Shown here piece by piece: positions 1 through 20,081 of a stretch of DNA of 64,000 nt (position 1 is the stretch's first letter; the number at the start of each line of letters is the position of its first letter). Both the position numbers and the translations under genes were made by a program. This stretch comes from a virus. The notes under the pieces are model-generated. The model was not told the origin of the DNA, did not search any database, and was given only the letters and a program-made list of their open reading frames with translations. The stretch covers positions 1 through 64,000 of IMG/VR virus record IMGVR_UViG_3300037502_001322; one strand, given 5' to 3'.

Positions 1-242
1 AGAATACTAATCTCTTTGATGCACTTTGTCAATTGTTTCTGAACAAATTCTACATCTTGTTGGGCATAGTTAGTGTCTTCTGGTTGAAATTTAGAAGCTT
101 CACAATAGGCTGAATACATCTTCAACCCTTTCAGTTCACCATTATAAGATGTTATTTGGTTTGAAATTGATTGAATATAGAAAAGGAGAGCTTCACTCCC
201 CAAATCTTTAATATCATTAGTTGATTCTATTTGTTTAATCAT
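1..242 (-). CDS. hypothetical protein, truncated by the window edge (MIKQIESTNDIKDLGSEALLFY...)
   Basis: ATG at 242 overlaps the stop of the upstream ORF; frame is open to position 1. Confidence 0.6.
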   Translation of the reverse strand, partial: MIKQIESTNDIKDLGSEALLFYIQSISNQITSYNGELKGLKMYSAYCEASKFQPEDTNYAQQDVEFVQKQLTKCIKEISI

Positions 243-930: not shown

Positions 931-941
931 TATTAAACTCC

Positions 942-2111
942 TTAGAAGTTACTTTCATTATCTTTTAGTAGATACTTAGGATCAAACACAGGTTTCTCTT
1001 TATAAAGAGTCTTCTTGCAATCAGGGTCAACCATCTCAAGATAGTCCATTGATACTTCATTCTGAGGAAGAAACAGCCTGAATTCTTTCCAGAAATGATG
1101 GTGTTTGATACTCCAACTTTTACCAAAATCTACTTTAGTAGAACCTTCCATATCTCCTGCCACCATTTCAAAATAGACACAAGAATACTCTAAATCTTCT
1201 TCGTTAGATTTGTTATCGTACCTCTTAAGAACAGTATAAGTCAAATTCTTTTTCTTAGCAGAATCTATTTTAGTTCTAAAATCAGAGAAGTTAGTCCACT
1301 TGACAGTAGTGTTGTCCCTACTATTAGGAAGAAGATTATAACTTGACTCTAATTTACAACTATCAACAACCAAGTCGATTGCTTCTGTTGGGTTAAATTC
1401 CCAACCTTCTCCTAATTTCTTTTCCAGTTGTTCTTTAAGTTTCTTAACTTTTAGACCATACATAGATCCAATGTGTTCTATTAATTTTTCGGAAGAACTT
1501 AAGTCAATCTTTGAAATCTCAGAATATACTTTAAGCTTTTCCGACAGTGGTGCACTGTACCCTCGAAATGAATACTTATCAAGACGCAAGGCGCTCACAA
1601 GAGGGTAATCTGTTCCTTTCCAGAACATCAGTTTACGTTGTCCTAAATGTTTAAAGAAATCCCTATGGTGAACAATAATTTTAGAGTGAAAACTATAGGC
1701 ACACATATTGATTGTAAAGTCAAAAGATTTGAAAATAGACTCACAACTGCTAACCTGATACCAATCAACTAACTCTCTGTCTTTAGGGTGGAACTTATAG
1801 TAAATAAGTTGCAGTATTATTCCTTGACTTTTGATAGTCATTGACTTATCAGTTATGAAATATTGTGCGTCAAAATTACTTGGGAGCGTAAAGATAAATT
1901 TATCTAACATCTCTTTAGATTCGAAATACAAATCAAAATCTGAGATTTCAGAAGAAGAGAAATAACTTGTCATTGCGCCACCAGCAAGAATAGCTTTTGA
2001 GGCAACAAGAGCTTCTTTAACGCTATCACTAAACGTGTTCTCTATCCTTTTAGTGAACTCATTATCTTCCATAATTTCTATGCTTTCTTGATTTTCTTTA
2101 AATTCTACCAT
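942..2111 (-). CDS. nucleotidyltransferase-superfamily protein (poly(A) polymerase/CCA head-like)
   Basis: LAGGA...SDFDLYF (hG[GS]x9-13DhD) and FDFTINM motifs. Confidence 0.65.
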   Translation of the reverse strand: MVEFKENQESIEIMEDNEFTKRIENTFSDSVKEALVASKAILAGGAMTSYFSSSEISDFDLYFESKEMLDKFIFTLPSNFDAQYFITDKSMTIKSQGIILQLIYYKFHPKDRELVDWYQVSSCESIFKSFDFTINMCAYSFHSKIIVHHRDFFKHLGQRKLMFWKGTDYPLVSALRLDKYSFRGYSAPLSEKLKVYSEISKIDLSSSEKLIEHIGSMYGLKVKKLKEQLEKKLGEGWEFNPTEAIDLVVDSCKLESSYNLLPNSRDNTTVKWTNFSDFRTKIDSAKKKNLTYTVLKRYDNKSNEEDLEYSCVYFEMVAGDMEGSTKVDFGKSWSIKHHHFWKEFRLFLPQNEVSMDYLEMVDPDCKKTLYKEKPVFDPKYLLKDNESNF

Positions 2112-2880
2112 TACTATTAAACTCCTTATTGAATTTCTCCACTAATTGATCAAAATAATCATCTCTAATATAGTCTTGAGTGTAGTCTTTATAGTTCGAC
2201 TTGTCAACAAATAAATTTCCTTTATGGAAACACCTTCCGTAAAAACAAATATTGAACAACTCTTTTACCTTTTGTTCGAATATGTTTAACGGACAGTTAA
2301 TAACCTTCTCATTAGCTTCTATTGGATAAATATCAGAGACCATCCACAGATAATCTATTTGATCGGATGATAACACACGACATTCTTCATTACCTTGTTG
2401 CTCTCTGTTTAGGTCAATCATATCGAAGACTGTATAAACATCAAACAGCCCAGCATAAACATTTGGGTTATTGATTAAGGATACCGCCCTACTTTTTACT
2501 TGTTGTGTTTTAGGTAAAACAATTAATTGGAATTGATTTAAATTAAACTGTCTTCTAAACATCACATTAAAATGAGTAGCTGACCCGTAAGGGTTTATAG
2601 AGTGATTGAATACTATCAACGTACCAATAGTTATAGTAGAGTTAGTTGCATAACTCTTTGGATGAAATTTAAAAGAAAAAGAGCCCCTTGATAGGGGCTT
2701 TGCAGTTTCTAACTCAACGTTCATTAATAATCTCCATATACTTTTCTTTAATCTTTTCCTGCTTCTCTTTGTCTTCAATAGATTCACACATGAAGAAATA
2801 ATCCCACTCGTCTGTTGTAGGTTCTGTTTGATTATTAAAATAACTTTTAGCTTGTGTTGCCAAACTGTGTAGACTTTCAA
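2098..2880 (-). CDS. hypothetical protein (true start probably the internal MNVELE, ~2721)
   Basis: ORF; GGAG precedes the internal ATG; 5' part overlaps 2714..3007. Confidence 0.6.
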   Translation of the reverse strand: MKVYTVWQHKLKVILIIKQNLQQTSGIISSCVNLLKTKRSRKRLKKSIWRLLMNVELETAKPLSRGSFSFKFHPKSYATNSTITIGTLIVFNHSINPYGSATHFNVMFRRQFNLNQFQLIVLPKTQQVKSRAVSLINNPNVYAGLFDVYTVFDMIDLNREQQGNEECRVLSSDQIDYLWMVSDIYPIEANEKVINCPLNIFEQKVKELFNICFYGRCFHKGNLFVDKSNYKDYTQDYIRDDYFDQLVEKFNKEFNSNGRI

Positions 2881-3007
2881 TTACAATTAAGTTCCCATCA
2901 GCAAGACCTTCAACCTTAGTTCCAAATAAATCTAATGAGAAATTGTGAGGATTGTAAGATTTACTGATATTTGTCATAATTAATCGCCTTACCGAAAGGA
3001 GCATCAA
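2714..3007 (-). CDS. small protein: tail-tube-like N-terminal fragment + shared C-terminal module
   Basis: SYNPHNFSLDLFGTKVEGLADGNLIVIE followed by SYFNNQTEPTTDEWDYFFM. Confidence 0.6.
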   Translation of the reverse strand: MMLLSVRRLIMTNISKSYNPHNFSLDLFGTKVEGLADGNLIVIESLHSLATQAKSYFNNQTEPTTDEWDYFFMCESIEDKEKQEKIKEKYMEIINER

Positions 3008-4442
3008 AGTTATTATTATCGTTAATGATGAACAATGTCTTTTGAGAATAAGGTTTAAATTTATTCTTTAGTTCTTGATTCATATTAAAGAAACCATCAG
3101 TGAATATAACCAACTGGTCAATCTTCTTGAGTTCTTCCAGTTTAGGGACAATACAACCAAGAGATGTCCCACCGCCTCCTTTCAATTGGAACGATTTCAT
3201 CTTTGTTAGATTAGATTGGTCATAAGTGTAAACATCATAAGCTTTAGTGTCCCAACAGAACACATTAATTTCAAAACAATTATATTGTTTAGTGATACCA
3301 GCAACTTCACTTAGCACTGTGTGCAATGCTTCTTGTGTCACCGACCCTGAACTGTCAACAGCAATAACCACAGAAACAGTTTCTTGTCTTGCTTTAGCTG
3401 GCAACACAATTTGTTGATTATAGTTCAATTGCCCAGACTCTTTCAAGTGTTTTGTCAGTGCAAAAGAACGACGATGGATTCGTTTATAATCGTGGTTGTG
3501 TTTAATCAAAGAAGGAATAACTTTCTTAAGATGCTTCTTCCAATTGATTTTAGGTTTCTTCCACTCCTTCATAATATCACGGATGTGAGAAGGTGTGCTG
3601 TCACCAGCATTCTGAGAAGCCATCTGAATATCAACTTTCATTTTATCAGAGGCTTTCTGATAGTCTTCTTTAGACATCTCAAACTTCTTGCCTGCAAGAG
3701 GATCAAGTCCTAACATCTCTTCCATAGGAGATTGAATAGAAGGTTTGTCTTGTGAGGAAGAAGGCATATGATAAGAACCTTTAGAACTTGCACATTTCCC
3801 GTTGTCCTCTGAATCTTTATTATCTTGTCGTTCTTTCTTCAACAAATCATAGACTTGTTCAGAAGTCAAATCATCATATTGTTCACTGTAGAGTCCTGCT
3901 GCAATAATAGGAGATTTAGTGATAGCTGCATTATAATCACCTTTGTACCAATCTTTCACAATTTGACGGTTAATCTTATAATCCCCAGCTTCATTATAAA
4001 GTTCAGGATCTCTTGTTCCTCGTCTCAGGAAATGTTCATTAACAATATGGTCAATCTCATGCCTGAACACAAACATGATATCATTAACATTGCAACCTTT
4101 CTTTTTAGTTTCAAGAATTTCTTTCAGTTCGTCATATTGTTCTTGTGTGACTCGTTGTTCAGTCAACATATGGTTCAAACGAGAAAGACTTTCATTATAA
4201 CGAACTTCAGGCATACCAGCAACAAATTCAGGATTAAACCAAATAGAGAAACCATCTGTTCCGGCGGTAGGAACAAAAGAATAATCTAACTTTAACTTTT
4301 GGTTCATTGCAAGCTGAGCATAGAAGGGATGTTCTCTAAGCATATCAAGGCGAGCCTTGCGAATCATCTTGATAGCTTTGTCTTCAAGCGCTTTAATAGA
4401 ATCTTTTTCTTCTTGACTCATAAGTTTCATTTTAGTATTCAT
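2961..4442 (-). CDS. metallopeptidase-like + VWA domain protein (DUF2201 type)
   Basis: TAGTDG, HEIDH zinc motif, C-terminal MIDAS DSSGS...GGGT...FTDG. Confidence 0.85.
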   Translation of the reverse strand: MNTKMKLMSQEEKDSIKALEDKAIKMIRKARLDMLREHPFYAQLAMNQKLKLDYSFVPTAGTDGFSIWFNPEFVAGMPEVRYNESLSRLNHMLTEQRVTQEQYDELKEILETKKKGCNVNDIMFVFRHEIDHIVNEHFLRRGTRDPELYNEAGDYKINRQIVKDWYKGDYNAAITKSPIIAAGLYSEQYDDLTSEQVYDLLKKERQDNKDSEDNGKCASSKGSYHMPSSSQDKPSIQSPMEEMLGLDPLAGKKFEMSKEDYQKASDKMKVDIQMASQNAGDSTPSHIRDIMKEWKKPKINWKKHLKKVIPSLIKHNHDYKRIHRRSFALTKHLKESGQLNYNQQIVLPAKARQETVSVVIAVDSSGSVTQEALHTVLSEVAGITKQYNCFEINVFCWDTKAYDVYTYDQSNLTKMKSFQLKGGGGTSLGCIVPKLEELKKIDQLVIFTDGFFNMNQELKNKFKPYSQKTLFIINDNNNFDAPFGKAINYDKYQ

Positions 4443-4828
4443 TACATATTACCCTCAAAATATTCATCACCAAAAGCATAATAACAGTTTTCTTCCGACC
4501 AAGGTAACCTAAAACCTTCTACCATTTCAAGATAATTCTGTTCCTCTTTAGATGGTCTCTTCCAGTTTTTGAAATAAGAAACCCACGAATACATAAGAAT
4601 ATCTTTCCCGTAGACTGTCAAGAAACTTTCGTTGTAAGGATGAACAGTAAACCCGTAAGTAACACCCAGAGCACCCCACGTTTTGTTAATGCCGTTCCAC
4701 CAAGAAGGTTGCCAATGGTCTCTGCGAGGGTGATACATTTCCTTTCTTTCCTCAAAATCGTTATGTTGAAACTTATCCAACCAATTTTTATTCGCTAAAT
4801 AGAAGTCATTGTCAGTTTCTACTATCAT
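4442..4828 (-). CDS. hypothetical protein with shared C-terminal module; paralogue of 5081..5425
   Basis: NKNWLDKFQHNDF N-terminus; SYFKNWKRPSKEEQNYLEMVEGFRLPWSE. Confidence 0.8.
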   Translation of the reverse strand: MIVETDNDFYLANKNWLDKFQHNDFEERKEMYHPRRDHWQPSWWNGINKTWGALGVTYGFTVHPYNESFLTVYGKDILMYSWVSYFKNWKRPSKEEQNYLEMVEGFRLPWSEENCYYAFGDEYFEGNM

Positions 4829-4832
4829 TTTA

Positions 4833-5093
4833 TTAAACTCCTAATATTCCACAAATTAACATAGACCATAGACAAACAATAGCACCAAAGGACATAAGAT
4901 TCAAGTAAACCGAACCATATTTCTCATTCTTAGATTTACAATCTTTATAATTTAGGATTCTAACAAATTCTTTCTGTCCAAGGTAATAATAAAAGAATAC
5001 CAGCCAAACAGATAATTGAGTCCCGACAATAGCAAAAGATTTAGTTAACTCATAAGCAGAAAAGAATTGTTCAATCATTGTTAATCCTCCCAA
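4833..5093 (-). CDS. small membrane protein (2 TM)
   Basis: two hydrophobic segments; GGAGG before MIEQ. Confidence 0.6.
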   Translation of the reverse strand: MGGLTMIEQFFSAYELTKSFAIVGTQLSVWLVFFYYYLGQKEFVRILNYKDCKSKNEKYGSVYLNLMSFGAIVCLWSMLICGILGV

Positions 5094-5425
5094 ATAAAGG
5101 GTTCGTCTTCACTCCAAGGAAGACGATAGCCATTAACTAATTCATAATAACCCATCTCTTCTTTGGTTGGTCTTTTCCAGTTAAGGAAATATTCCTTTAT
5201 GTTATTCTTATCCTCACTCTCCCCATAATTTAACGCTATTAAATTCCCGTTTTTATTAACTTCTAAAGAATATTCATTAGATAATACATACAATTTAGAA
5301 GGGTCTCTGTGTATATAATCAATATTACCGTCCCACCATGCAGGGACATCATCGATTCCATAATCATTGTGTTCAAATTTATCTAGCCAACTCTTATTCA
5401 GTTTTACAAACATATGAACATTCAT
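5081..5425 (-). CDS. hypothetical protein with shared C-terminal module
   Basis: NKSWLDKFEHNDY; EYFLNWKRPTKEEMGYYELVNGYRLPWSE. Confidence 0.8.
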   Translation of the reverse strand: MNVHMFVKLNKSWLDKFEHNDYGIDDVPAWWDGNIDYIHRDPSKLYVLSNEYSLEVNKNGNLIALNYGESEDKNNIKEYFLNWKRPTKEEMGYYELVNGYRLPWSEDEPFIWED

Positions 5426-5479
5426 ATTCTATAATCTCCAATATACATATAACCATAGATTAATCATAACACAAACAAA

Positions 5480-5514
5480 GAAAAAGGCAACCATCTTTTC
5501 AGATAGTCGCCTTA
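5480..5514 (-). terminator. probable intrinsic terminator after the AAA gene
   Basis: aaggcaaccatc/gatagtcgcctt stem with U-tract on the - strand. Confidence 0.5.
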
Positions 5515-5529
5515 AAATTAATATTTTAT

Positions 5530-6681
5530 TTATTCAGAGAAGCAATCTTGAAGACTCATATATTTAACAATAATCTTCTTCATGCTTCCAAGTTGAGCAG
5601 CTTTAGCTGAAAGCATTGTCCTAGTTTTAGCTTCACGTATTGTGTCATTAACTTTACGAACTGTCGCAACGAACATCTCAACTTCTTGCCCAAAAGACTC
5701 AAGTAAGAAGTGGAAGTAGTTATCCAACTTAACCATGAAATCTTCAGTTGGTAGAACATCTTCAGGTTTTTCCATATGCTCTTTAATCAGAGACAAACAA
5801 CCTTGAGTGATCATGTACATATGGGAAGGTTCATAATCGTCTGCTTCATATTTCTTAACTCGACCTTCAAGGATATCAAACGCTGAAGGAAGTTTACCAT
5901 TAAGTTGATAAGAAGCTTTCAGCTCAATCATTGGTGCTGAGCCGACCAAACCTTGAATGCCAATCCAACCAAGACGTTCACTAATCAGTTTCTTATCCAT
6001 CTCATGCAACACACCAGAAACAGCTTCCCAGCTACGGGCAGTGCAGAAAGAAGGTTCATCATTCTGAGGATCTGTGTTAAAGAATTCAGGATTAGAGCGC
6101 AACAGACCTACCACCGCAGGATGAATGTTATTATCTGAAGCATAACCTTCCAACCATCCTTCAACGTCAGGTTTAACTTCAACAATCATTAGACGGTTAG
6201 CCAAAGGACTAAGGAGTTCATAACCTGCACCATTATCGAACACACGGTTAGCAGCAAGAGAAATTCGTGCTTTCTCAGGGAAATGAAACTCACCAATGCG
6301 ACGATCCAAACAAATCTGATAGCAAACATGTTGCATTGCTGGTGTTCCGTGAAGAACCTCATCCAGAAAGATGATGCCCTCCCAATCAGGATCTTTAGGC
6401 CAGAAACTAACAAAAGCATAGACTGTTTCAACTGAACCGTCTTCTTGTGTCACAGGAACTTGAATACCTGAAAGGTCTGTTGGTTCTTTATCTGACACAC
6501 GAACATCAATAATGTTTCCATTATAACGTTCTTGAGCATATTGATTAACAATATGGCTCTTCCCAGACCCTGCTGGACCAAGGACAAGACAAGGACGTTT
6601 AACACGAAACCCCAATTCAATCATTTCAGGAATATCTTCAACACCGATTTGATTAGTGAAAATATAATCTTGTGAACTCAT
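5530..6681 (-). CDS. MoxR-like AAA+ ATPase
   Basis: Walker A GPAGSGKS, Walker B IIFLDE, sensor AANR, LANR arginine finger; near a VWA partner. Confidence 0.9.
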   Translation of the reverse strand: MSSQDYIFTNQIGVEDIPEMIELGFRVKRPCLVLGPAGSGKSHIVNQYAQERYNGNIIDVRVSDKEPTDLSGIQVPVTQEDGSVETVYAFVSFWPKDPDWEGIIFLDEVLHGTPAMQHVCYQICLDRRIGEFHFPEKARISLAANRVFDNGAGYELLSPLANRLMIVEVKPDVEGWLEGYASDNNIHPAVVGLLRSNPEFFNTDPQNDEPSFCTARSWEAVSGVLHEMDKKLISERLGWIGIQGLVGSAPMIELKASYQLNGKLPSAFDILEGRVKKYEADDYEPSHMYMITQGCLSLIKEHMEKPEDVLPTEDFMVKLDNYFHFLLESFGQEVEMFVATVRKVNDTIREAKTRTMLSAKAAQLGSMKKIIVKYMSLQDCFSE

Positions 6682-6711
6682 TAGCTATTCTCCTTTGTTT
6701 AACTTAAACTA

Positions 6712-7254
6712 TTATCTCTTAAGAAATACATGATTGTCAATCTTTTTAACTCTAACCATGCTGTCTGACCACTTCGGTTTCACTTTATAAGGATTGAAAT
6801 AATGGTCAGCATTTCCGACCACATTCTTCCCTTCACCTTTGATAACTTTACTCGCTATTCTGTAAGCTGTCAACCTAGATTTGAATTCTCTCATTTTTAA
6901 ATCTTCAACATCTTGCCAGAAACTAAACTGAGCTTTTTGTTTAACAACCCCAACTATTGTATCAGGCCAATGCTTAGAAACAACCCTATTTTCAATAACA
7001 TTCGCAATAGCATAAAGACCATCAATACTTTCTGACCTACCTTCGTGGTACAGAGTCAATGCTAACATTTCAAGGTCTTGTTGTGGTGATCTTGGAATAT
7101 TAACAGGTTCATAGTAGTAAATCCAGTCTGACGAATAGTTATATTCTGTTTGAACATTAGCAGAAACTAAATTAGAGAAAGCTAATGAAGTTACAAAACC
7201 TACAGATAAAATAAAAGCAGGGATTTTAACCCTGCAAATAAAGTTAGTGTTCAT
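6712..7254 (-). CDS. SleB-like cell wall hydrolase (Hydrolase_2)
   Basis: LALTLYHEGRSE...AIANVIENRV...WPDTI...QFS...HYF...IDNHVF; N-terminal signal. Confidence 0.9.
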   Translation of the reverse strand: MNTNFICRVKIPAFILSVGFVTSLAFSNLVSANVQTEYNYSSDWIYYYEPVNIPRSPQQDLEMLALTLYHEGRSESIDGLYAIANVIENRVVSKHWPDTIVGVVKQKAQFSFWQDVEDLKMREFKSRLTAYRIASKVIKGEGKNVVGNADHYFNPYKVKPKWSDSMVRVKKIDNHVFLKR

Positions 7255-7265
7255 TGTCAGTCCCT

Positions 7266-7547
7266 TTACTGGTTATTAATTTTAATCAGAACTATACAAG
7301 CGGCACGAAGAATATTCTTATCAATATGATAAGTTCCAAGAACAGGTGTTGGTCCGTGATATGCTATAGGATAAACAGAAACACCAGCTTTGAATTCTAA
7401 ACTTATTTGATATTCTTGACACAGCTCAAGAGTTCTCTTCCAATCATTGCACCAATCGACTGGTTTATCTGTTGATTCCACAATATCGTTAACCAGTTCA
7501 TTAATGGTTTTGTCTGAGACATTATTCCAATCTACATTAACTACCAT
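7266..7547 (-). CDS. hypothetical protein (NinX-like)
   Basis: DWCNDW...LRAACIVL pattern; AGGAG SD. Confidence 0.55.
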   Translation of the reverse strand: MVVNVDWNNVSDKTINELVNDIVESTDKPVDWCNDWKRTLELCQEYQISLEFKAGVSVYPIAYHGPTPVLGTYHIDKNILRAACIVLIKINNQ

Positions 7548-7674
7548 TTGTTATACTCCTTTATTATCTGATTACTCAGCCTACACACTTGGTTGCCTAA
7601 ACTATTCACCTAACACCATATTGATATCATCTCTCAAATCTCTGAGACTGTCAAGATCAAAAACACAATTAACT

Positions 7675-7893
7675 TTATAAGGTTTTCCTTGTGCTCCGAC
7701 AAAAAAAGGGAAGTTCTACGTGAGCAACATTATCTTCTTTAGAAGAATCATAATTGTTCACAACACCAGTGAAAGCATCAACCCACTGATAAACTATCTT
7801 CTTATCAACCTTTCTTTTATTATGAAAGTCAACATTAATCACATTAGATTTGTGAATCTTAGTGCGAGGGTCAGTGTAAGTTTCTTGTGTCAT
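7675..7893 (-). CDS. hypothetical protein
   Basis: AAGGAG SD, 72 aa. Confidence 0.55.
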   Translation of the reverse strand: MTQETYTDPRTKIHKSNVINVDFHNKRKVDKKIVYQWVDAFTGVVNNYDSSKEDNVAHVELPFFCRSTRKTL

Positions 7894-7973
7894 TTGTAGT
7901 TCTCCTTATTATCTTGATTTAAAATATTAACATTCATAGTTTATCTTAAATTCATACTGACATACTATAGCAC

Positions 7974-8498
7974 TTAAAATGCCTTGTCAATATCTTTTCT
8001 ATTCTCTACGATAGGGAGTGGCTGACCTTCACTCCAGATCAAATCAATATCAGTTACCATTTTAAAATAATTAAGTTCGTCTCGTGTAGGTCTTGTCCAA
8101 TCTTGAAAATATACAGGAAGATGAATTTCCTCCTGATTTGATGTAATTATTCTGCAATGATTGTTACCATAGTCGTACACCATTCCTTGTTTAATTGAAC
8201 CTCGATCTCCTTGGTACACTGCAAGATAACGTGTAGATTCGTTATGAAAAAGTTCAGGATAAGGCATACCTAATGAGTCAAGAAACCTTACCATCAAAGA
8301 AATAACTTCACCGAACTCTCCTTGCAACATCCATTCATCTCGTGAGTGTAAATGGACACCGAAAGTCTTAACATAGAGGGGTTCATAAGGCTCTAAATTA
8401 ATTTTACTTATAGGTAAATTATCTTCGTGATAATACCTGTTCATCCAACCTTCCGTGAAATTAAACACCTTCATCTGTTCTTCATAACTCATAATCAA
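7974..8498 (-). CDS. hypothetical protein with shared C-terminal module
   Basis: VYFQDWTRPTRDELNYFKMVTDIDLIWSE. Confidence 0.8.
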   Translation of the reverse strand: MIMSYEEQMKVFNFTEGWMNRYYHEDNLPISKINLEPYEPLYVKTFGVHLHSRDEWMLQGEFGEVISLMVRFLDSLGMPYPELFHNESTRYLAVYQGDRGSIKQGMVYDYGNNHCRIITSNQEEIHLPVYFQDWTRPTRDELNYFKMVTDIDLIWSEGQPLPIVENRKDIDKAF

Positions 8499-8600
8499 TT
8501 TCCTTGTTTAATAAATATCACCTATATAAATATGCAACAATCAAAGCATACACTAATCTCCACAGAACGTCAACTTGAAACCGGATTATACTTGTTAAAA

Positions 8601-8682
8601 CACACCTAAAAACGATTTCTAGGTCATACCCCAAGCCTACCTACAGGGGCACTGTTAGAGTCGCTTAGAATACACCAGAATC
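8601..8682 (-). repeat. ~75-bp hairpin leader element, copy 1
   Basis: reverse complement aligns with 62641..62713 and 63161..63250 (tagaaatcgttt core, (a/c)ccct...(a/g)gggt stem). Confidence 0.8.
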
Positions 8683-8727
8683 AGCTAAATTGCCTATACT
8701 TTGTTATAGCTGTGAAGCACTTCTTGG

Positions 8728-8763
8728 ATTTCAGGCAAAAGAAAACCCGGCGCGAGGCCGGGC
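8728..8763 (-). terminator. intrinsic terminator, near-identical to 57164..57200
   Basis: cccggc/gccggg stem + TTTTCTTTT on the - strand. Confidence 0.8.
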
Positions 8764-8797
8764 TTACTAATAACCATTTTTAAACAATAGCATCAAC

Positions 8798-9305
8798 AAG
8801 ACCTTGGGTGGTAAGTTTAACACAGAGACTTGTGCGTTACTTATCCTTCAAGGTCTTTTATCTAATCCACACCTATCTTAGTTATTATACTACCCAACAT
8901 TCAAATAGATGATATCTATAAGAAAGAGATATAACTGTATAATGAAATTAAGATAATTAATCAACATTATTATCATTTATCAGGGACGTAATTTTCTACG
9001 TTTACGGGATACAGTTCAACACTGTATCAGTGGTATGACTTATTATAAAAGATAAATCATCACTCTTTATTAGATCCGTAAGAGAAGGCTCGTGACACCC
9101 TGTAGACCCGGTTATTATGATAGCGACAAAGGTCTTCGTTCCTTTGTTGTGCAAGCTAACATCATTCCCCGGTTTACCACCCGTTCTAACCTGTTTATCC
9201 CTTAAGCATTATTGCAACATATTGTAAGCGTGGTTGGGAAGTCGTCTTGAAAACTCTGATAATAATGGTATTATTGTAGTGATAGTAACCCTAATCACTG
9301 TAGGT
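8798..9305 (+). ncRNA. candidate large structured non-coding RNA or ssDNA element
   Basis: no ORF; 11-bp closing helix 8965-8975/9257-9267 and many internal hairpins, G.U pairs mostly on +. Confidence 0.45.
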
Positions 9306-9359
9306 TATACACCCTCTGGTTGATTATACCTTTTTATCCAAGTTTTGTATTTATCGTGG

Positions 9360-9389
9360 TTGACTTGGTGTAAAACCACGTGGTACAAT
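9360..9389 (+). promoter_or_regulatory. sigma70-like promoter
   Basis: TTGACT-N18-TACAAT with TG extension. Confidence 0.6.
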
Positions 9390-9439
9390 CAATCATAGTC
9401 AAAGTTTATCACTATTTACTATGAAAATCAAGAGGTGTT

Positions 9440-9832
9440 ATGTCTTTGGAATATGAAAGGTACCAATCGTTTAACAAATTCTTAGAAGATAACGGAGATT
9501 GGTGTTTTATGCCTGCAATAGGGTTCAACACGATTTACCCTGTATGTTTTATAAATAAAACAGAAGATTTTATTGTTAGAGTAGAAGCTTTCTCGCTATC
9601 TAACCTTAATAGTATTCTTTGTATAAATGATAGAAATAGCTTACTTATGTTCACTGACACTGAAGGGTGGTCTTCAAAAAGTGTAATCCTTGTAGGAAAA
9701 GACCTTAACAGGGGTACAGATGATGTGTGTAGTATGTTTGAGGATTGGAAGACTCCAACACAAGAAGAGAAAGACTATTTTAAAATGATTTATGGTATGA
9801 CAATACCGTGGAATATTTTTGTCTGTAATTAA
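9440..9832 (+). CDS. hypothetical protein with shared C-terminal module
   Basis: GAGGT SD; MFEDWKTPTQEEKDYFKMIYGMTIPWN. Confidence 0.8.
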   Translation: MSLEYERYQSFNKFLEDNGDWCFMPAIGFNTIYPVCFINKTEDFIVRVEAFSLSNLNSILCINDRNSLLMFTDTEGWSSKSVILVGKDLNRGTDDVCSMFEDWKTPTQEEKDYFKMIYGMTIPWNIFVCN

Positions 9833-9912
9833 ACTGTTTGACTCTGAATTATTACTGTGATAAGGTATAATCATATTGATAATCACTTAGTCGCCTTCTT
9901 GGAGAATCTAAT

Positions 9913-10512
9913 ATGAATGTTAAATACAACACCAACGACTTATCAGAAAGATTACTTTATATCGAGAATCTTGAACACAAGATAAAATGTTTAAAGGGTC
10001 AGATTATTGCTAACAATGAAGGCGAATCTAAAATAAGGGAACATAAAGTCAGGTTGGAACGCTTTCAACAAGAATTAAATAAATTTAAAGGATCTAATAT
10101 GGACAGAATCCCTCTTACAGACAATGACGAGCACCATGATAAAGCCCAAGTCGGTTGTGAATCAGAAATTCCTTTTGATTTGCTTGTTGCAAATAAATAT
10201 AAACAGTTGTATAATTCTGCTATGTCAAGGAAGAAAGAGTTTGCACTGACTCTGAATGATGTTAGCAAGTTGCTCAAACGAAAGACCTGTCAGTATACAG
10301 GAGTTACTTTCGGGGAAGGCGATTTGTGCAGAAGCATAGATAGATTTGATAACAAAATAGGTTACACTAAAGAGAACTGTTTTGCTGTTACTAAACGAGC
10401 TAACGATATTAAGAATCATTTGCTTGAAAGGGAAGATTCTGCATTAGGTTTGAAATTTAAAGAGTTGAAGAGGTTTGTTGAAAGTTTAGATAAACTTGGT
10501 TTTAAAAGTTAA
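9913..10512 (+). CDS. protein with C-terminal HNH-like domain
   Basis: CQYTG...SIDRFDNKIGYTKENC...RAN motif. Confidence 0.7.
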   Translation: MNVKYNTNDLSERLLYIENLEHKIKCLKGQIIANNEGESKIREHKVRLERFQQELNKFKGSNMDRIPLTDNDEHHDKAQVGCESEIPFDLLVANKYKQLYNSAMSRKKEFALTLNDVSKLLKRKTCQYTGVTFGEGDLCRSIDRFDNKIGYTKENCFAVTKRANDIKNHLLEREDSALGLKFKELKRFVESLDKLGFKS

Positions 10513-10535
10513 GTTGATTGAAGGAGAATTGTGTG

Positions 10536-10834
10536 ATGAAAAATCAATATGGGTGGGAAGTTGGAGAGATTGGTATAGTAACTGAAGAAAGTGGATTTTC
10601 TAAAGGAAGTATTGTACAATTCGAAACAGATGACGGGACTGACACCCCCCTTTATGGAAGCTATTGAGTGGTAATTGCGAATATAGATTATCTGAAGGAA
10701 ATCAACCGGGAGCATATTGTTTTTATGATATTGTAATCAACCTATCAGGTTATTTCAAGAATTGGAAAAATCCGACACAAGAAGAAAGAGACTATTTCGA
10801 AATGATTTATGGAATCGATATTAAAGATATTTAA
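10536..10834 (+). pseudogene. frameshifted member of the shared C-terminal module family (shift at C6 tract 10645-10650)
   Basis: AAGGAG SD + ATG 10536; frame stops after DTPLYGSY; -1 frame continues LWKLLSGNCEY...YFKNWKNPTQEERDYFEMIYG. Confidence 0.7.
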
Positions 10835-11306
10835 TAATAGGGGAATATTCATGGCTACGACCACATCTAACAAAGTCAATATATTTATTGGTAAGAATAT
10901 TGAAGAGCTAACCTTTACTAAAGGTGGTTACTCTCAAAAAGAAAAACAAAACCTACCTTTTATTATAGAAGATCATAAGACAATAGTAGTTGATGTGATG
11001 AGTGCAGCTTGGGAATTTCCTGAAGAAAGGAAACACACGCACAAGCTTGCACAAGAATTAGTCAGACAGTTAAAGATGATTGAATATTACGATATTAATA
11101 TTATGACACACTCAAAAACTTGTATTGAAGTGGTCAGTGAGTTTATAGTGCAAGGTAAGTTGAAACCAGAACAAGTTTCTGTAACTATAATTTCTAATGA
11201 TAATAAAAATATTGAGCAAGTTTGCGGTTTTGATAGGGATGGTTGTTTAGAAGAAGGTTGGCCTATTGGCTTCATGAGTGTTGATTGGCAAGAATTAGAA
11301 TTGTGA
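10809..11306 (+). CDS. DUF3696-like protein (degenerate ABC/AAA ATPase C-terminal part); likely start 10851
   Basis: FPEERKH...IMTHS...FDRDGCLEEGWPIGF. Confidence 0.55.
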   Translation: MESILKIFNNRGIFMATTTSNKVNIFIGKNIEELTFTKGGYSQKEKQNLPFIIEDHKTIVVDVMSAAWEFPEERKHTHKLAQELVRQLKMIEYYDINIMTHSKTCIEVVSEFIVQGKLKPEQVSVTIISNDNKNIEQVCGFDRDGCLEEGWPIGFMSVDWQELEL

Positions 11307-11326
11307 CAGAGTAAGAGGAATTACTT

Positions 11327-11740
11327 ATGAGTTATGAAGAGAAACAAGAAATTAAAGATTTTATCGTTAAGATTGAAAATATGTTGAAGACTAAATCTGC
11401 TGATGAAGTTTCTGAAGAGATTTATAAAATTGCAGAGAGTTTAGTAAAAGAACAAGAATTAGCAGCTCAGATAGAACTGCTAAACATAGATCAGTGGTAC
11501 CAACACGAAGGCTTGACATTAACTTCTGCTATTATTAGTATGCTTGAGAAAGAGTTAGGTTATCCTGAAGACAGTTGGGATGAAACTTTTAAACACCAAG
11601 TTTGTCATCCTTCAATCTGGAATGAAAGAACTAATAATTTGTTGAAGAATGCTATTGACAATCTTGCTGAGTTGTACCAAGCTATAGGCGAGTGGGAGGA
11701 AGATTTTGATGATAGTGTTAATAAAGGGGAGTCAGAATGA
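11327..11740 (+). CDS. hypothetical protein
   Basis: GAGGA SD, 137 aa. Confidence 0.75.
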   Translation: MSYEEKQEIKDFIVKIENMLKTKSADEVSEEIYKIAESLVKEQELAAQIELLNIDQWYQHEGLTLTSAIISMLEKELGYPEDSWDETFKHQVCHPSIWNERTNNLLKNAIDNLAELYQAIGEWEEDFDDSVNKGESE

Positions 11741-11979
11741 AAGTTGAACAACGAACAGTCTATATTGCACATGACGGTAAAGAATTTGATTCAGCAGGAG
11801 CTTGTCACGATTATGAAGATTCTTTAGCATTGCAAGATTATTTTGAGGAATCTTGTTACCATTATTACGGTAGGTTGCAGTTGGAAGATGTTCATGCTTT
11901 GAAGGATTTCCTGAAGCAAGGCAAAGAACATATTTTACCTTTTATGGGTTGGAAAGAAATAGAAGCTGATGGTACTTAA
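11737..11979 (+). CDS. hypothetical protein
   Basis: ATGA overlap; YIAHDGKEFDS...C..YE phage motif. Confidence 0.75.
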   Translation: MKVEQRTVYIAHDGKEFDSAGACHDYEDSLALQDYFEESCYHYYGRLQLEDVHALKDFLKQGKEHILPFMGWKEIEADGT

Positions 11980-11990
11980 ATAATAATTAA

Positions 11991-12251
11991 TTGATTAATT
12001 TAGAAAAAGGAGTTGATATGGGTGTTTTAGCTTGCGACAGAAATGGCTGTCATCACATTATGTGTCAATATGTCTCTAACAGTTACGGATATCTCTGTGA
12101 GTATTGTTTTGAAGAATTGAAAAGCAAACCTAACGCAGATATCTATGAGTTCATGAATTCAGAACCTACTCCAGAAGAAAGTAACTACCTATGGACAACT
12201 TTTATTGAATCTGAGTTTAAGGATCGATACTGCGAGGACTTTGATGAATAA
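11991..12251 (+). CDS. Cys-rich hypothetical protein (start likely MGVLAC, 12018)
   Basis: AGGAG SD; CxxxxC...CxxC. Confidence 0.7.
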   Translation: MINLEKGVDMGVLACDRNGCHHIMCQYVSNSYGYLCEYCFEELKSKPNADIYEFMNSEPTPEESNYLWTTFIESEFKDRYCEDFDE

Positions 12252-13536
12252 ACTTACTTATGGAACAACAGAAGATGCGCTTGACTTGATATTGTCAGGA
12301 GAGAACTGTTGCATAACTGGTCCGGGAGGTTCAGGCAAGAGCCATCTTATTGGAACTATTAAAACCTTCTTTGAGAGTGACACAATCTTTGTTGCACCGA
12401 CAGGGTTAGCTGCCCTAAACATTGGTGGGCAGACTTGTCACAGAACCTTTGGATTGGGTTTTGGTGTATATAAACAAGGTCTTCCATTTAAATTGAATAA
12501 GGAACGTAAAGCTGTTCTCTCCTCTAAACAAATTAGTCGCATAGTGATAGACGAAGCTTTCTCTCTTCGTACTGACAAGTTTATTGAAATCATTGATAAA
12601 CTAAAATGGATTAGAAAGATAAAGAAAGGACAGAAGCTTGACTTGCAAGTTATTCTGTTAGGAGACTGTTTACAGATAGGTCCAGTAACATCTCAAAAAG
12701 AATACAAAGAGTTCTATGAGAATTATGACTCACCTTATGTGTTTGATTGTGAAACTTTCAACGAACTTGACTTTAAACGAATTGAGCTAACTAAAATTTA
12801 TCGACAATCAGATGTTGAATTTAAGTCTATTCTGAATAAAGTAAGAAAAGCAGAGGATGTTAGAGAGTGTTGTCATTATCTTAATTCTAAAGTTGTTGGG
12901 AAACCAATAAAACAGAATAGTGTAGTTATCGCCACAACCAATAAGGATGTTGATCGGATAAATAAGACAGCACTAAATAAGATTGAAGGTTTCCATAAAA
13001 CTTTCTATGCAAGTGTTGTTGGTGATTTTAAAGAGCAACCTGCACCACAAACATTAGAGTTGAAAGTCGGTGCTCAGGTTATTATCACTGCCAATTCTGG
13101 TTTGACTGAATTGAAACAAACGTACATTAACGGCAATGTTGGTGTTGTTGAAAAGATAACAAATTATAAAATAGATGTTAGGATAGCTGATGACTCTGAG
13201 TTGAAAGGAGAATTAGTTTCTTTAAGCAAACACACGTGGTACAATGTAGAACAATATGTTTATAAACATCCTAACGGGAGAGAAGAGCTTAAAGAAAGAA
13301 TGATTGGTTCTTATGAACAGTTTCCTGTTAAACTTGGATTTGCCATATCAGCACATAAATCCCAAGGTCAAACCTTCAGTGATGCACATCTTGATTTTGG
13401 TTATCGTTGCTTTGCTCCAAGTCAAGCGTACGTTGCATTGTCAAGGGTTAAATCTGTAGAAGGAATAACCTTTGAAAGACCGATAAAACCTGAAGATATT
13501 TTTGTTGACAGTAAAGCGTTGAGGTATTATAGTTAG
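12205..13536 (+). CDS. Pif1/RecD-like SF1B DNA helicase
   Basis: GPGGSGKS, VAPTGLAA, IDE, GDCLQ, YRQ, HKSQG, QAYVALSR. Confidence 0.93.
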   Translation: MNLSLRIDTARTLMNKLTYGTTEDALDLILSGENCCITGPGGSGKSHLIGTIKTFFESDTIFVAPTGLAALNIGGQTCHRTFGLGFGVYKQGLPFKLNKERKAVLSSKQISRIVIDEAFSLRTDKFIEIIDKLKWIRKIKKGQKLDLQVILLGDCLQIGPVTSQKEYKEFYENYDSPYVFDCETFNELDFKRIELTKIYRQSDVEFKSILNKVRKAEDVRECCHYLNSKVVGKPIKQNSVVIATTNKDVDRINKTALNKIEGFHKTFYASVVGDFKEQPAPQTLELKVGAQVIITANSGLTELKQTYINGNVGVVEKITNYKIDVRIADDSELKGELVSLSKHTWYNVEQYVYKHPNGREELKERMIGSYEQFPVKLGFAISAHKSQGQTFSDAHLDFGYRCFAPSQAYVALSRVKSVEGITFERPIKPEDIFVDSKALRYYS

Positions 13537-13582
13537 GTTGTATTCAGATACACAAGCATTACAACAGATTAGGAGATAACAA

Positions 13583-13777
13583 ATGAAAGATTATTCACAA
13601 ATTAATGTTAAAGATATGACTGACCAAGAACTGAACGGACGACTATGCTTTCTTGCTCGTGAACGACTTTACTTTGAGAAAGAGCTTCTTTTGATTAACG
13701 GTGAAATCTCAGAAGTGTTGGAAGAACAAGGTCAACGTAATTTTAAAAAGAGTATGAGGGGTTCTGAAAATGATTAG
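13583..13777 (+). CDS. hypothetical protein
   Basis: AGGAG SD. Confidence 0.65.
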   Translation: MKDYSQINVKDMTDQELNGRLCFLARERLYFEKELLLINGEISEVLEEQGQRNFKKSMRGSEND

Positions 13778-14090
13778 AATATACAAACGGCTTCTTAAAT
13801 TTTGCAGAAATAAAGTGAGAGAACAACATTTACAGAAATATAACAATGATGTGAAATGTCCAAACTGTAATGATTGGTTTTCTCTGTCTTCGCTAAACTA
13901 TAAACATGAACATGTCACTAATCCTTCATGGGGTTTTCATCTCAAATGTGGGCAGTGTAAACATGAATCTTATTGGAATGCTGAGATAGCTCCCGTTCTA
14001 ATTTTGTGTAATGCTAATGGGATTCCTTTAGAAAAGAATCCTAAAATAGTGACAACAACCAAAGGTTATTTAAATGATGAACAGCTTTGA
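13770..14090 (+). CDS. zinc-ribbon hypothetical protein
   Basis: CPNC...CGQC. Confidence 0.7.
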   Translation: MIRIYKRLLKFCRNKVREQHLQKYNNDVKCPNCNDWFSLSSLNYKHEHVTNPSWGFHLKCGQCKHESYWNAEIAPVLILCNANGIPLEKNPKIVTTTKGYLNDEQL

Positions 14091-14322
14091 TGATTTAATT
14101 CTTGAGTTTGCAAGACAAAACATAGATATCATGCGAGATAAGAGTTATGACTTTTGGGATGTGAATGTAGATCAATTAAATGTTATTGAACGCAGCCTTC
14201 ACGATTGGAATGTTGTATTTTCCTTGAGTTCACGTGATGTTTATGAGATCATTAACAGCGAGACAGTAGAGATTACCTTTGAAGAATTGTTGCTGTGGTT
14301 GTACAACAAAAAGACACAATAA
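14074..14322 (+). CDS. hypothetical protein
   Basis: ORF in operon context. Confidence 0.6.
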   Translation: MMNSFDDLILEFARQNIDIMRDKSYDFWDVNVDQLNVIERSLHDWNVVFSLSSRDVYEIINSETVEITFEELLLWLYNKKTQ

Positions 14323-14339
14323 AAACAAAAGGGTAATTT

Positions 14340-14699
14340 ATGGAAGAATCTAAAATTAAAGATTTGAGTTATATTGTCAGCGACTTTAACGAGGAATACA
14401 TTGGTGTAGACCTTGTAGTTATGTCGGAAGGGAGGCAAGAAGTCTTCACGATTGAAGCTGATTATTCAGTTAAAAACTCAATAGATGAATTGTGTTTCGA
14501 CAGTGTAAATAATCACGTTAGTCTTGTTTCTGACTCTGAACAAGATTGTGAAATAGTTGTTGAGTCTTTTGATGTTTACGACCAGCATGGTCAAATCAGT
14601 TATAAGCTTGATGAGATTTATTCTGAAAATGAATTAGAATCTTTCTTGACAAAATTGATTCATAACCGTATAATGTTTAGTCACGTCATTGATAACTAA
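14340..14699 (+). CDS. acidic hypothetical protein
   Basis: ORF rich in D/E. Confidence 0.7.
   Translation: MEESKIKDLSYIVSDFNEEYIGVDLVVMSEGRQEVFTIEADYSVKNSIDELCFDSVNNHVSLVSDSEQDCEIVVESFDVYDQHGQISYKLDEIYSENELESFLTKLIHNRIMFSHVIDN
14646..14674 (+). promoter_or_regulatory. consensus sigma70 promoter
   Basis: TTGACA-N17-TATAAT. Confidence 0.75.
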
Positions 14700-14716
14700 G
14701 TTGAGAGGAATAGGAA

Positions 14717-15229
14717 ATGAAAGACAATCAAAAAGAACAACAAGAAGTTATTCGCAATGTTCAATCTGCATTGAACCTGCTTGACACTTATATGCAATCA
14801 ACCAATCAAGCTTTCAGGAATGTTCTTATTGCTGGAGTTCAAACAGGAGGATTCAATTCTCTTGAAGTGCAAGTGATTAGCCTTAAGCGATTCATGAATG
14901 CTCTTGGTTATGTGGAAGTCTATGCTGGAGAAGACAACGAGCAAATGACACGAGGATTTATTCTTAAACATCCTTATGTCCATAAAGACTGTTTGCCTGT
15001 CTCTGTTAGTTTTAATGATGCTATTTATCTGCATAACGTTGCTTTCGCTGAAATGAATAATCTGCCTTTTGTGACTATTAAGAAAATTCCTCGTGGATTG
15101 ATTGAAGATGCACGGCACTTCAAGATTGTTCAAACTATCGGACTTCAGGTTGTGAAGCAAACAATGAAACGAAATAATAAACGTGGTTCTGTTATTCGGA
15201 CAACAAAAGAATTTGTTAAGTTTGTTTAA
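14717..15229 (+). CDS. hypothetical protein
   Basis: GAGGA SD, 170 aa. Confidence 0.75.
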   Translation: MKDNQKEQQEVIRNVQSALNLLDTYMQSTNQAFRNVLIAGVQTGGFNSLEVQVISLKRFMNALGYVEVYAGEDNEQMTRGFILKHPYVHKDCLPVSVSFNDAIYLHNVAFAEMNNLPFVTIKKIPRGLIEDARHFKIVQTIGLQVVKQTMKRNNKRGSVIRTTKEFVKFV

Positions 15230-15247
15230 AAATAGTTAACTTATTTA

Positions 15248-17086
15248 TTGGGAGACTATGATTTGAAGGTAGAGAGGTATGGTGTTAGTATTGACTTAAG
15301 CTATGAACATAAAACTGGTTGCCCTAAATGTATATCTCAAGGTAGAGATAAGAAAGGTGAGAACCTTCACGTTTATGGCTTAGGGGACAATAAAAGGCAC
15401 TTAGGTGCTTTTTGTTTTAGTTCTTCTTGTGGGTATACAATACCTTCGGAAGATTGGTTAGAAGAAAACAGACCAATTAAAATAGAAGATATGGAGTATG
15501 AACTATTGAGTACAGAATTTAATAAAGAGGTACACGATGGCATTAAGTCTATTACAACCTTTAATAGCAAAGGTTATCGTGGAATCTCCACGGAAACGTC
15601 TAAGTATTTTGGAGTTAGGTATGAGTGCAGCCAAGAAACTGGAGATGTGGTGGCATCATACTATCCCGTAACTAAAGGGGTTACTGAAGGAATACCTGTA
15701 GGAGATGCCATTACAGGATATAAAATTAGACAGCACCCAAAAAGTTTTAGGGCTGTCGGTGAGGTTGGTAAAGAAAGTGATTTGTTTGGTATGTTTAGGT
15801 TTCAAAGTCACAAAGGTATTCTTGTAATTTGTGGTGGTGAAGTTGATCAATTATCTATGTATCAGGTTTTGAAAGAAGACTATGATAAGAGGGGTAATAC
15901 TAAATATGATGAAGTAGCTGTAGTTAGCCCTACCACAGGTGAGGGAAGTATTTCACAGATCAAGTATCATTATAATTACTTCAAGAACTTTAATAAAATT
16001 ATTATTGCTTACGACAATGACGAGGCAGGAAGAATAGCAACAGAAGCCACCGCCCAGGTTCTTCCAAGAGGTAAGGTTTTTGTTATGCCACTAAGAAATA
16101 AAGATATAAATGAATACATTCAAAAAGGAATGGAAAAACAACTGATATCTGATTTCTGGTCTGCTAAGCCTTGGACTCCAGATGGTGTTAAGAGCAGCTT
16201 TGATGGTTTCTATGATATTGAATCAGAACTTCTTCGTGAAAGAATAACTTTGCCTCCATATATGCACAAACTACAGTACAATATGGGAGGAGGGTTTGTG
16301 CAGGGCGCCACTCACAACATAATTGCCGCTACAGGTGTTAGCAAGACTACCCATGTCAGGCATATGGTTTACCATATGATAATGAACTCTGGACTAAAGC
16401 CTACGATTATTTCATTAGAAGAAACAGCAGTTAAGTATAACTTAGAACTTCTTCAGCTTCATGCAAAAGAAAACTTTATGTTCGGAAAGACAGGTCAAGA
16501 GATAATAGATTACCTTAAAACACCAAGAATGGCCAAACTTCAACAGGAACTTATTATGGATGAAAACGGACAACCAAGATATTATATCCTCGATGAGCGT
16601 TCTGGCAATATCAAGTCAATAGAAGATTTGATTGAAATGCTTCACAAGAAGCATGGCAGTGAGATTTTTATTTGTGATGTTCTTAGCGACCTTCTTCGTG
16701 GCAGTAGTGCAGATTTGGCAGAAGATCATATGGCATTCCAACGCAGAATGAATAAAGAAGGAGTGACATTCTTTAATACTCACCACACAAGAAAGCCTTC
16801 AGCAGACAAGGATGGTAAAGAAAGAAAAACAACAGAATATGATGTACTTGGTACAGGAAGTTTTGTGCAATCAGGGCACACTAATATTGTACTTAACAGG
16901 GACAAGTTAGCACAAAATGGAATAGAACGTAACACTACTCAAGTCAGTATGCCTAAGTGTCGTGGAGGTATAACTGGGGAAGTAACTGGATGGTTTTGGG
17001 ATTTTAATACATTACAGTGTTATGATGTAGAAGATTACAAGAAAGATAATCCTCATTTATTTGTAGGAGAAAGTAATAATGAGTGA
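15248..17086 (+). CDS. T7 gp4-like DNA primase-helicase
   Basis: N-terminal CPKC...C zinc finger, TOPRIM GEVD and YDNDEAG, KDINEY, SF4 helicase motifs (AATGVSKT, SLEE, HHTRK, KCR). Confidence 0.92.
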   Translation: MGDYDLKVERYGVSIDLSYEHKTGCPKCISQGRDKKGENLHVYGLGDNKRHLGAFCFSSSCGYTIPSEDWLEENRPIKIEDMEYELLSTEFNKEVHDGIKSITTFNSKGYRGISTETSKYFGVRYECSQETGDVVASYYPVTKGVTEGIPVGDAITGYKIRQHPKSFRAVGEVGKESDLFGMFRFQSHKGILVICGGEVDQLSMYQVLKEDYDKRGNTKYDEVAVVSPTTGEGSISQIKYHYNYFKNFNKIIIAYDNDEAGRIATEATAQVLPRGKVFVMPLRNKDINEYIQKGMEKQLISDFWSAKPWTPDGVKSSFDGFYDIESELLRERITLPPYMHKLQYNMGGGFVQGATHNIIAATGVSKTTHVRHMVYHMIMNSGLKPTIISLEETAVKYNLELLQLHAKENFMFGKTGQEIIDYLKTPRMAKLQQELIMDENGQPRYYILDERSGNIKSIEDLIEMLHKKHGSEIFICDVLSDLLRGSSADLAEDHMAFQRRMNKEGVTFFNTHHTRKPSADKDGKERKTTEYDVLGTGSFVQSGHTNIVLNRDKLAQNGIERNTTQVSMPKCRGGITGEVTGWFWDFNTLQCYDVEDYKKDNPHLFVGESNNE

Positions 17087-17858
17087 AAATAGTAGATCTA
17101 AAAAGATTATACAAACAAAAGCTAAGAATTATGTAGGAAAGACCTTCAAGGTTAATTGTGGTTGGGTAGGAGAGGTTCTTGAATATAAAGGGAGTAGCGA
17201 CCTTACCGTTAGGTGGCAAGATGGCAGTGTAGAGGATAAAATTTACTCTGCTAATCTTAAATCTGGGTCACACAGGCCAAAAATGTTTCCTGGTGTTGTT
17301 GGAGTAGGGATTTTCGATAAAAGAGGACAAGAGTACTGCAAAGACATATATTGGAAGTGGTCAAGTATGATTAAGAGGTGCTATTGTGAACACTACCTTA
17401 AAGATAAACCTACATACAGAGGAGTCACTGTCTCTGAGGAGTGGAAAGTGTTCAGTAATTTCAGTAAGTGGGCAGAGCAGTTTGGGGATATAAAGAGCCT
17501 TGAGTTGGATAAAGATTTCTTGGGAGACGGGACGCATTATTCAGAGGAAACGTGTTGTTTCATACCAAGCTATATTAATAGTTTAGATATACACAATATC
17601 TATGGCAGTAAGGGAGTAACTTATAATAAGAGGTTAGATAAATGGGAGGCAAGTGTAAGTAACACTCAGTATTGTGGAAGAAGAGAGAATAAATATATAG
17701 GAGTGTACTTTGACAAAGAAGATGCCCACTTGGCTTATATTAGGGCCAAAAAGAATGTAGTTCTTGAAAGACTTGATTGGTACAGAAAAGAAGATTTTTA
17801 TGATAGTAGGGTAGAGGGTACTATACTTAGAAGTAAACTTTTCACAGATTATCAATAA
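17079..17858 (+). CDS. free-standing HNH homing endonuclease with AP2-like domain
   Basis: WSSMIKRCY, ELDKD..G..YSEETCCF, GVTYNKR..KWEA..YIGVYFDKEDAHLAY. Confidence 0.85.
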   Translation: MSENSRSKKIIQTKAKNYVGKTFKVNCGWVGEVLEYKGSSDLTVRWQDGSVEDKIYSANLKSGSHRPKMFPGVVGVGIFDKRGQEYCKDIYWKWSSMIKRCYCEHYLKDKPTYRGVTVSEEWKVFSNFSKWAEQFGDIKSLELDKDFLGDGTHYSEETCCFIPSYINSLDIHNIYGSKGVTYNKRLDKWEASVSNTQYCGRRENKYIGVYFDKEDAHLAYIRAKKNVVLERLDWYRKEDFYDSRVEGTILRSKLFTDYQ

Positions 17859-17916
17859 AAAGATCTTTACTAATCGTTCCCTTCAGTGTACTATATAAAA
17901 ATACAAAGGAGGTTAA

Positions 17917-20073: not shown

Positions 20074-20081
20074 AACAATAG

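Follow-up and report, generated by a model that had tools for sequence, protein, structure and literature searches.

Phages and prophages encode large ornate RNAs such as GOLLD (RF01998) and ROOL (RF03087; Weinberg et al., 2017, PMC5737381; Kretsch et al., 2024, bioRxiv 10.1101/2024.12.08.627333), and the most abundant transcript of the Vibrio phage ICP1 is an ~800-nt non-coding RNA (ncRNA) that comes from a ~1-kb ORF-less gap flanked by gp139 and gp140 (Barth et al., 2020, PMC7567579). These large structured phage RNAs are abundant, their functions are unknown, and each unrelated, well-bounded example offers a new route into them. In an uncultivated subsurface phage, the candidate presented here sits between two early promoters and heads the replication operon. 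It is a real, orphan and unusually structured non-coding insert, for which the best reading, although we place it somewhat short of an even chance, is an independent structured ncRNA of ~580 nt transcribed leftward.

The sequence belongs to a 103,675-bp IMG/VR virus contig (74% complete according to CheckV), of which bases 1–64,000 make up the stretch of DNA analyzed in this work (hereafter, the window). Identical sequence occurs in sequencing runs of a single subsurface-metagenome study, specifically in three DNA contig sets, all of which run unbroken and without variants through the element, and no RNA run is listed as containing it. Searches with the portal and the helicase indicate a myovirus, its size put at ~140 kb, that is a distant relative (~40–46% amino acid identity) of rV5-like and related myoviruses such as Aeromonas Plateaulakevirus, Klebsiella phages, and Vibrio ICP1. 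It carries four group I introns detectable with Rfam and three tRNAs. Two divergent early gene blocks meet at the locus, a leftward one (genes 1–8498) with a MoxR-like ATPase, a cell-wall hydrolase and small ORFs, and a rightward one (genes 9440–22702) in which small ORFs are followed by a PIF1/RecD-like helicase, a Toprim-DnaB primase-helicase and a family A DNA polymerase. They are separated by a 941-nt ORF-free gap, the largest divergent gap of the contig, inside which the structured segment occupies 8766–9330 (~560 nt). An earlier note, made from the letters of this DNA, had pointed to an ORF-free element of ~500 nt at the strand switch, and this was borne out: there is no ORF of at least 60 aa in the segment, and the four of 34–50 aa all lack ribosome-binding sites. 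The features of the locus are the following.

8765–8733, − strand: intrinsic terminator, with a 9-bp stem (8765–8743, six G-C pairs), a 5-nt loop and the tail TTTTCTTTTGCC
8798–8857: long, imperfect hairpin whose 19-nt arms include three G.U pairs when read on the + strand; TTTTAT comes next on that strand
8882, 8967, 9040, and 9112 (+ strand) and 9259 (− strand): five dispersed TTATTAT heptamers, spaced by 85, 73, 72, and 147 nt
8965–9267: multibranch core of 303 nt, closed by an 11-bp helix; fold z-score −3.83 (+) and −2.95 (−)
8986–90/8997–9001: helix acgta/tacgt
9002–9081: three-way junction predicted on both strands, formed by its closing helix, an 8-bp hairpin (9008–28) and a hairpin at 9029–64
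9002–07/9076–81: helix ttacgg/ccgtaa, which closes the junction
9008–15/9021–28: helix gatacagt/actgtatc
9102–9177: long bulged hairpin, with its apical stem at 9125–32/9141–48
9125–32/9141–48: helix gacaaagg/cctttgtt
9184–9239, + strand: hairpin ttctaacctgtttat/gtaagcgtggttggga with an inner gca/tgc stem, its outer part on the + strand only
9247–9274, + strand: promoter-like TTGAAA-16-(TGg)TATTAT, overlapping the 3′ arm of the closing helix
9278–9299: 6-bp hairpin agtgat/atcact (arms 9278–83/9294–99) with a 10-nt loop
9329–9322, − strand: octamer GTATAATC containing a perfect −10 hexamer (9328–9323), with a weak −35 (AATACA); candidate promoter with a start near 9316
9360–9389, + strand: sigma-70-type promoter TTGACT-18-(TGg)TACAAT, serving the rightward replication operon (ORF 9440 onward); right bound of the element

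The perfect 11-bp helix named in the earlier note is present as an inverted repeat (8965–75/9257–67), and the other helices that it named were all recovered with small shifts in coordinates. By itself the 11-bp helix counts for little, since 19 of 300 shuffles contain a perfect inverted repeat of at least 11 bp. The helices are all unlike one another in sequence, which fits pairing, and not protein recognition, being what matters. The TTATTAT words, with five copies in 384 nt where the genome density of 0.67 per kb predicts ~0.26, make the element one of the two densest loci of the contig, and being AU-rich they permit several alternative pairings and are promiscuous.

The excess of structure is real and unusual. 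The earlier note had allowed that folding might turn out no better than that of dinucleotide shuffles, and the element beats them on both strands, with MFE z-scores of −5.04 (+) and −3.18 (−) for 8735–9314 and of −4.95 (+) and −3.45 (−) for 8798–9305. Values of −4.73 (+) and −2.70 (−) were obtained when 50-nt blocks were shuffled, which keeps the local composition, and the terminator was excluded, and within the core the 200-nt window at 9000–9199 gives −3.76 (+) and −2.75 (−). With DNA folding parameters the z-score is still −4.05. For comparison, 40 coding windows of 508 nt each from the same genome range from +3.2 to −2.8, and 10 of the 12 other gap windows from +1.9 to −2.0, the exceptions lying at 96.65–97.7 kb. 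The three regions with the genome's group I introns give −4.26, −1.64, and −3.65, and the expressed ICP1 ncRNA −2.85 by the same measure. The element is thus on a par with, or above, the group I introns of its own genome.

No relative of the element was found in any of the collections searched. The comparison against Rfam by Infernal, proposed in the earlier note, gave no match in the gap: cmscan retrieved nothing at the gathering score at this locus and nothing at E up to 10 over 8400–9500. Searches with blastn of 8500–9450 and 8766–9330 against 50,697 phage records gave nothing meaningful even at an E of 5, and neither the scan of JGI metagenomes nor the search of IMG/VR with a 22-nt terminator word (0 matches) detected a relative; the leader motif used as bait in IMG/VR gave 10 matches, by chance. 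Among the proteins around the gap, the flanking ORFs, the helicase and the ATPase had no match in IMG/VR (a two-sequence helicase profile was likewise blank), ORF 9440 matches only itself among 5.8 billion proteins, and for the helicase a single relative came up, P0003 (62% identity), which is encoded on a Logan contig of 27.9 kb. Within the 103.7-kb contig there is no second copy of the element body, and tandem repeats, tRNA and tmRNA are absent from the element. A pseudogene or decayed paralogue was rejected, as tblastx against the whole contig and the Aeromonas and ICP1 loci was blank, and so was a group I intron (RF00028), given that the four introns lie elsewhere in the window and none in 8400–9500. 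A comparison was possible with the Aeromonas phage 2L372D, a distant syntenic relative with the same gene order (on the left arm the ATPase and small genes; on the right arm small genes, then the helicase, primase-helicase and polymerase), in which the gap at the strand switch measures 143 nt versus 941 nt here. The same order around so short a gap indicates that ~0.6–0.7 kb between the divergent promoter regions is a lineage-specific addition.

With GOLLD and ROOL the element shares the ~0.5–0.8 kb size class, a densely branched predicted fold, a phage-borne location and an unknown function. It differs from them in that neither covariance model matches it, whether at the gathering score over the whole window or at E up to 10 over 8400–9500, and in having no family of relatives, and, while they often adjoin tRNAs, it lies 48 kb from the tRNAs of this phage (57.4–58.4 kb). 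The ColE1-type RNA II primer with its antisense RNA I is another structured RNA of ~550 nt located beside replication functions; the likeness, which extends to the possible antisense partner, may be drawn as an analogy only.

The leftward end of the structured part is marked by the intrinsic terminator, which follows it directly, and there is no − strand ORF between this terminator and the rightward promoter. The earlier note had already seen a − strand terminator here, at 8728–63; its presence held and its exact limits changed, with the stem at 8765–8743 and the tail reaching 8733. A copy of 37 nt, 94.6% identical and including the stem, is found at 57164–57200, at the end of a tRNA-Thr/ncRNA unit. 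The tail TTTTCTTTTRCCTGAAAT (window 8733–8750 and 57169–57186) appears exactly in 56 IMG/VR loci (L019–L074), mostly behind unrelated GC-rich hairpins; it is seen after RNA genes as well as after protein genes, which many of the copies follow, and none of these 56 loci has a related body. It is the mark of a genuine terminator and not of an RNA family, and its use as a hallmark of an ncRNA family was rejected because protein genes carry it too. Close variants of the tail occur in ICP1, 11895-B1, and Shewanella phage 1/4; the tail is conserved with covarying stems, and the conservation extends past the T-run.

The ICP1 ncRNA also occupies a large (~1 kb) ORF-less gap, in an rV5-like myovirus distantly related to this phage, and shares with the element a hairpin terminator with the tail TTTTCTTTT(A/G)CCTG, followed by the promoter of the next gene, together with the absence of an Rfam match. 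The terminator tail, being widespread and present behind protein genes too, is not diagnostic. The body is dissimilar (blastn and nhmmer of 8499–9439 against the ICP1 gap and four related gaps match the terminator tail only), the ICP1 RNA lies between co-oriented genes whereas the element is at a strand switch, and expression has been demonstrated for the former while the RNA of the latter is predicted from sequence. Moreover, the 5′ hairpin of ICP1 (loop GACCGTTATGTT) is absent from the element and occurs at 57.44 kb, by the tRNA-Thr. The loop of this hairpin is conserved, its stem changes from CCTT/AAGG to CCGT/ACGG, and the TCGCTACC block that follows is conserved. Blocks of the ICP1 gap recur as a patchwork in gaps of other Vibrio and Shewanella myoviruses, and one of these gaps immediately follows tRNAs.

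The region at 57165–57463 (− strand), 300 nt from the tRNA-Thr to the terminator, starts with a GACCGTTATGTT-loop hairpin at 57444, immediately 3′ of the tRNA. The loop and the flanks, AAAGAATTCACC and TCGCTACC, have their counterparts at the 5′ end of the ICP1 gp139–gp140 gap and in Vibrio phage 11895-B1, with a compensatory change in the stem; the fold z-score is −2.62. Given the ICP1-type hairpin and the TCGCTACC block, the unit that shares the terminator of the element is probably homologous to a known expressed phage ncRNA, specifically as a shortened homologue of the abundantly expressed ICP1 RNA, whose family is absent from Rfam. In Vibrio phage 11895-B1 (L015:1-1912) an HNH endonuclease ORF (462–1010) lies between the ICP1-type 5′ hairpin motif (1–100) and the remaining ICP1-block gap, and the ncRNA gene of that phage may be interrupted by a mobile endonuclease.

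At the other end of the element, the − strand TATAAT of the earlier note exists, its position being 9328–9323 rather than ~9323. The octamer that contains it, GTATAATC, is also found 93 nt before ORF 8498 (at 8591, − strand) and 48 nt before ORF 9913 (at 9865, + strand), and of its nine copies in the genome three are both intergenic and correctly oriented. The candidate − strand start and the rightward start stand back to back, 82 nt apart, a normal geometry for divergent promoters. The strongest units of this phage, tRNA operon included, have perfect TTGACA-17-TATAAT promoters, and there is none at the element.

In the reading that we prefer, the lineage-specific insert would form its own non-coding transcription unit. 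From a start near 9316, set by the GTATAATC −10 box and back to back with the rightward early promoter, transcription would proceed leftward across the hairpins and the 303-nt multibranch core as far as the terminator, giving an RNA of ~580 nt; the leftward genes would then restart from their own promoter region (8545–8600). Like GOLLD, ROOL, and the ICP1 ncRNA, this would be a stable, ornate phage RNA that acts through its fold and not by coding. Besides the excess of structure, the place of the terminator, the insert status, the unlike sequences of the helices, the lack of a pseudogene trace and the ICP1 precedent, two observations argue for this: the stem-identical copy of the terminator ends an RNA-only unit (the tRNA-Thr plus the 300-nt region), and the octamer recurs before two neighboring genes. 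Against it are the lack of a homologue in the collections searched, the poor −35 of the candidate promoter, the better folding and more numerous G.U pairs of the + strand, a closing helix that is within chance, and the promiscuous pairing of the TTATTAT repeats. As regards the inference of the earlier note, an unrecognized large phage ncRNA or else a structured origin or genome-end signal, what stood is that the element is ORF-free, unusually structured and absent from Rfam, in keeping with the ncRNA, and the origin and genome-end alternatives gained little.

The functional strand could instead be the + strand, with a long structured leader or a separate RNA running rightward from weak promoters (8938, 9092, or 9247) into the replication operon, perhaps with an antisense partner on the − strand, a possibility that we regard as improbable. 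Its z-scores are the better ones under both shuffle models, promoter-like sites are present at 9092 and 9247 (10 of 12 matches), and the + strand TATAAT reported at 8938 in the earlier note is indeed there (8938–43). That note had also maintained that most wobble pairs are G.U on the + strand, which is only mildly true, with 18 G.U pairs in the + strand MFE structure versus 11 in that of the − strand; the three G.U pairs of hairpin 8798–8857 become A.C mismatches on the − strand. However, the native MFEs of 8766–9330 are almost equal on the two strands (−140.0 versus −139.4), and the z advantage of the + strand comes largely from the weaker random folding of this C- and A-richer strand (shuffle means −109 for the + strand versus −120 for the − strand). 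The energy of the mirrored structure was uninformative as an indicator of strand. A rightward RNA would also have no terminator before ORF 9440, the best + strand promoter (9360–9389) is downstream of the structure, and the − strand terminator would be left unexplained. Altogether, transcription signals favor the − strand and thermodynamics mildly favor the + strand, and we rank the − strand first because only a leftward RNA accounts for the terminator and for a structured region with defined ends.

Two other explanations were considered. The element could work at the DNA level, as a protein-binding or replication-initiation region heading the helicase/primase/polymerase operon, with phased TTATTAT sites and extrudable hairpins (one version being a transcription-primed origin). 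The structure signal on both strands and with DNA parameters, the position directly upstream of the replication module, a local minimum of the cumulative GC skew at ~9.3 kb, and the spacings of the TTATTAT sites, which are near whole helical turns, are all in agreement with this. But the phasing was noticed post hoc, GC skew tracks gene orientation across the whole contig, and there are neither tandem iterons nor an AT-rich unwinding tract (GC 0.33–0.41 versus 0.36 for the genome). A DnaA-box origin was rejected for lack of enrichment, TTATNCACA with at most one mismatch being found 98 times in the window against 93 expected, two of them in the element. A much more origin-like array, eight AACAAAT in 320 nt beside GC-rich palindromes with z-scores of −6 to −8.5, is located at 96.5 kb (see below), and we consider a DNA-level role of the element doubtful. 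A functionless insert, the remnant of a mobile or recombined piece with a copied terminator and hairpins with no selected role, seems to us unlikely, yet it carries appreciable weight. The sequence is an orphan found in a single genome, its terminator is a copied module, and the 11-bp terminal inverted repeat resembles the end of a MITE. Nevertheless, z-scores like that of the element occur in none of the coding windows and in just one other gap of this genome, no trace of a pseudogene was seen, and it is rare for the genome of a lytic phage to retain 0.5 kb of junk. A MITE-like mobile element, specifically, was rejected, since the inverted repeat has no flanking target-site duplication and the body no second copy in the contig.

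It is conceivable, though on balance unlikely, that the segment encodes a previously unseen class of large (~0.55–0.6 kb) ornate RNA, a new family beside GOLLD, ROOL, and the ICP1 ncRNA, which a lytic myovirus would make from its early divergent promoter region and which would possibly act on replication or on early/late switching. If the candidate RNA is confirmed, it would show that RNAs of this sort keep arising, in the form of moron-like cassettes (morons being phage inserts that are transcribed independently). If not, it would be a warning that fold z-scores by themselves over-call RNA genes.

Several other features of this genome were recorded. There are seven perfect TTGACA-16/17-TATAAT promoters (window 14646, 20082, 38768, 48375, 57131, and 58424; contig 88759), each oriented with the local genes and two of them flanking tRNA/ncRNA units, and a late-promoter system based on TATAAATA was considered and rejected. 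An element of ~75 nt is present in three copies, at window 8600–8690 (−), 62645–62715 (+), and 63175–63245 (+), each upstream of the next gene and in the same orientation. It consists of a hairpin CCCTRTAGGTAGGCTTRGGG, with changes that preserve pairing, and an invariant TAGAAATCGTTT, and a diverged fourth copy is located on an 8.9-kb contig of the same depth and source run. A tRNA-Leu(UAA) at window 58207–58292 (−) was detected by ARAGORN and missed by Rfam at the gathering score, and the adjoining 57935–58206 has a fold z-score of −2.75. On the same strand, 60677–62035 contains a 452-aa ORF for which Pfam gave nothing at E up to 0.01. At 96530–97700 of the contig (G000:C1:96530-97700), beyond the window, GC-rich palindromes follow a run of ~320 nt with eight AACAAAT or TAACAAA repeats. 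The 520 nt at 96652–97171, in a 2.1-kb convergent gap, have the most extreme fold z-scores of the contig (−6.0 on the + strand and −8.5 on the − strand), and the region is the best candidate for an origin, or else is another RNA.
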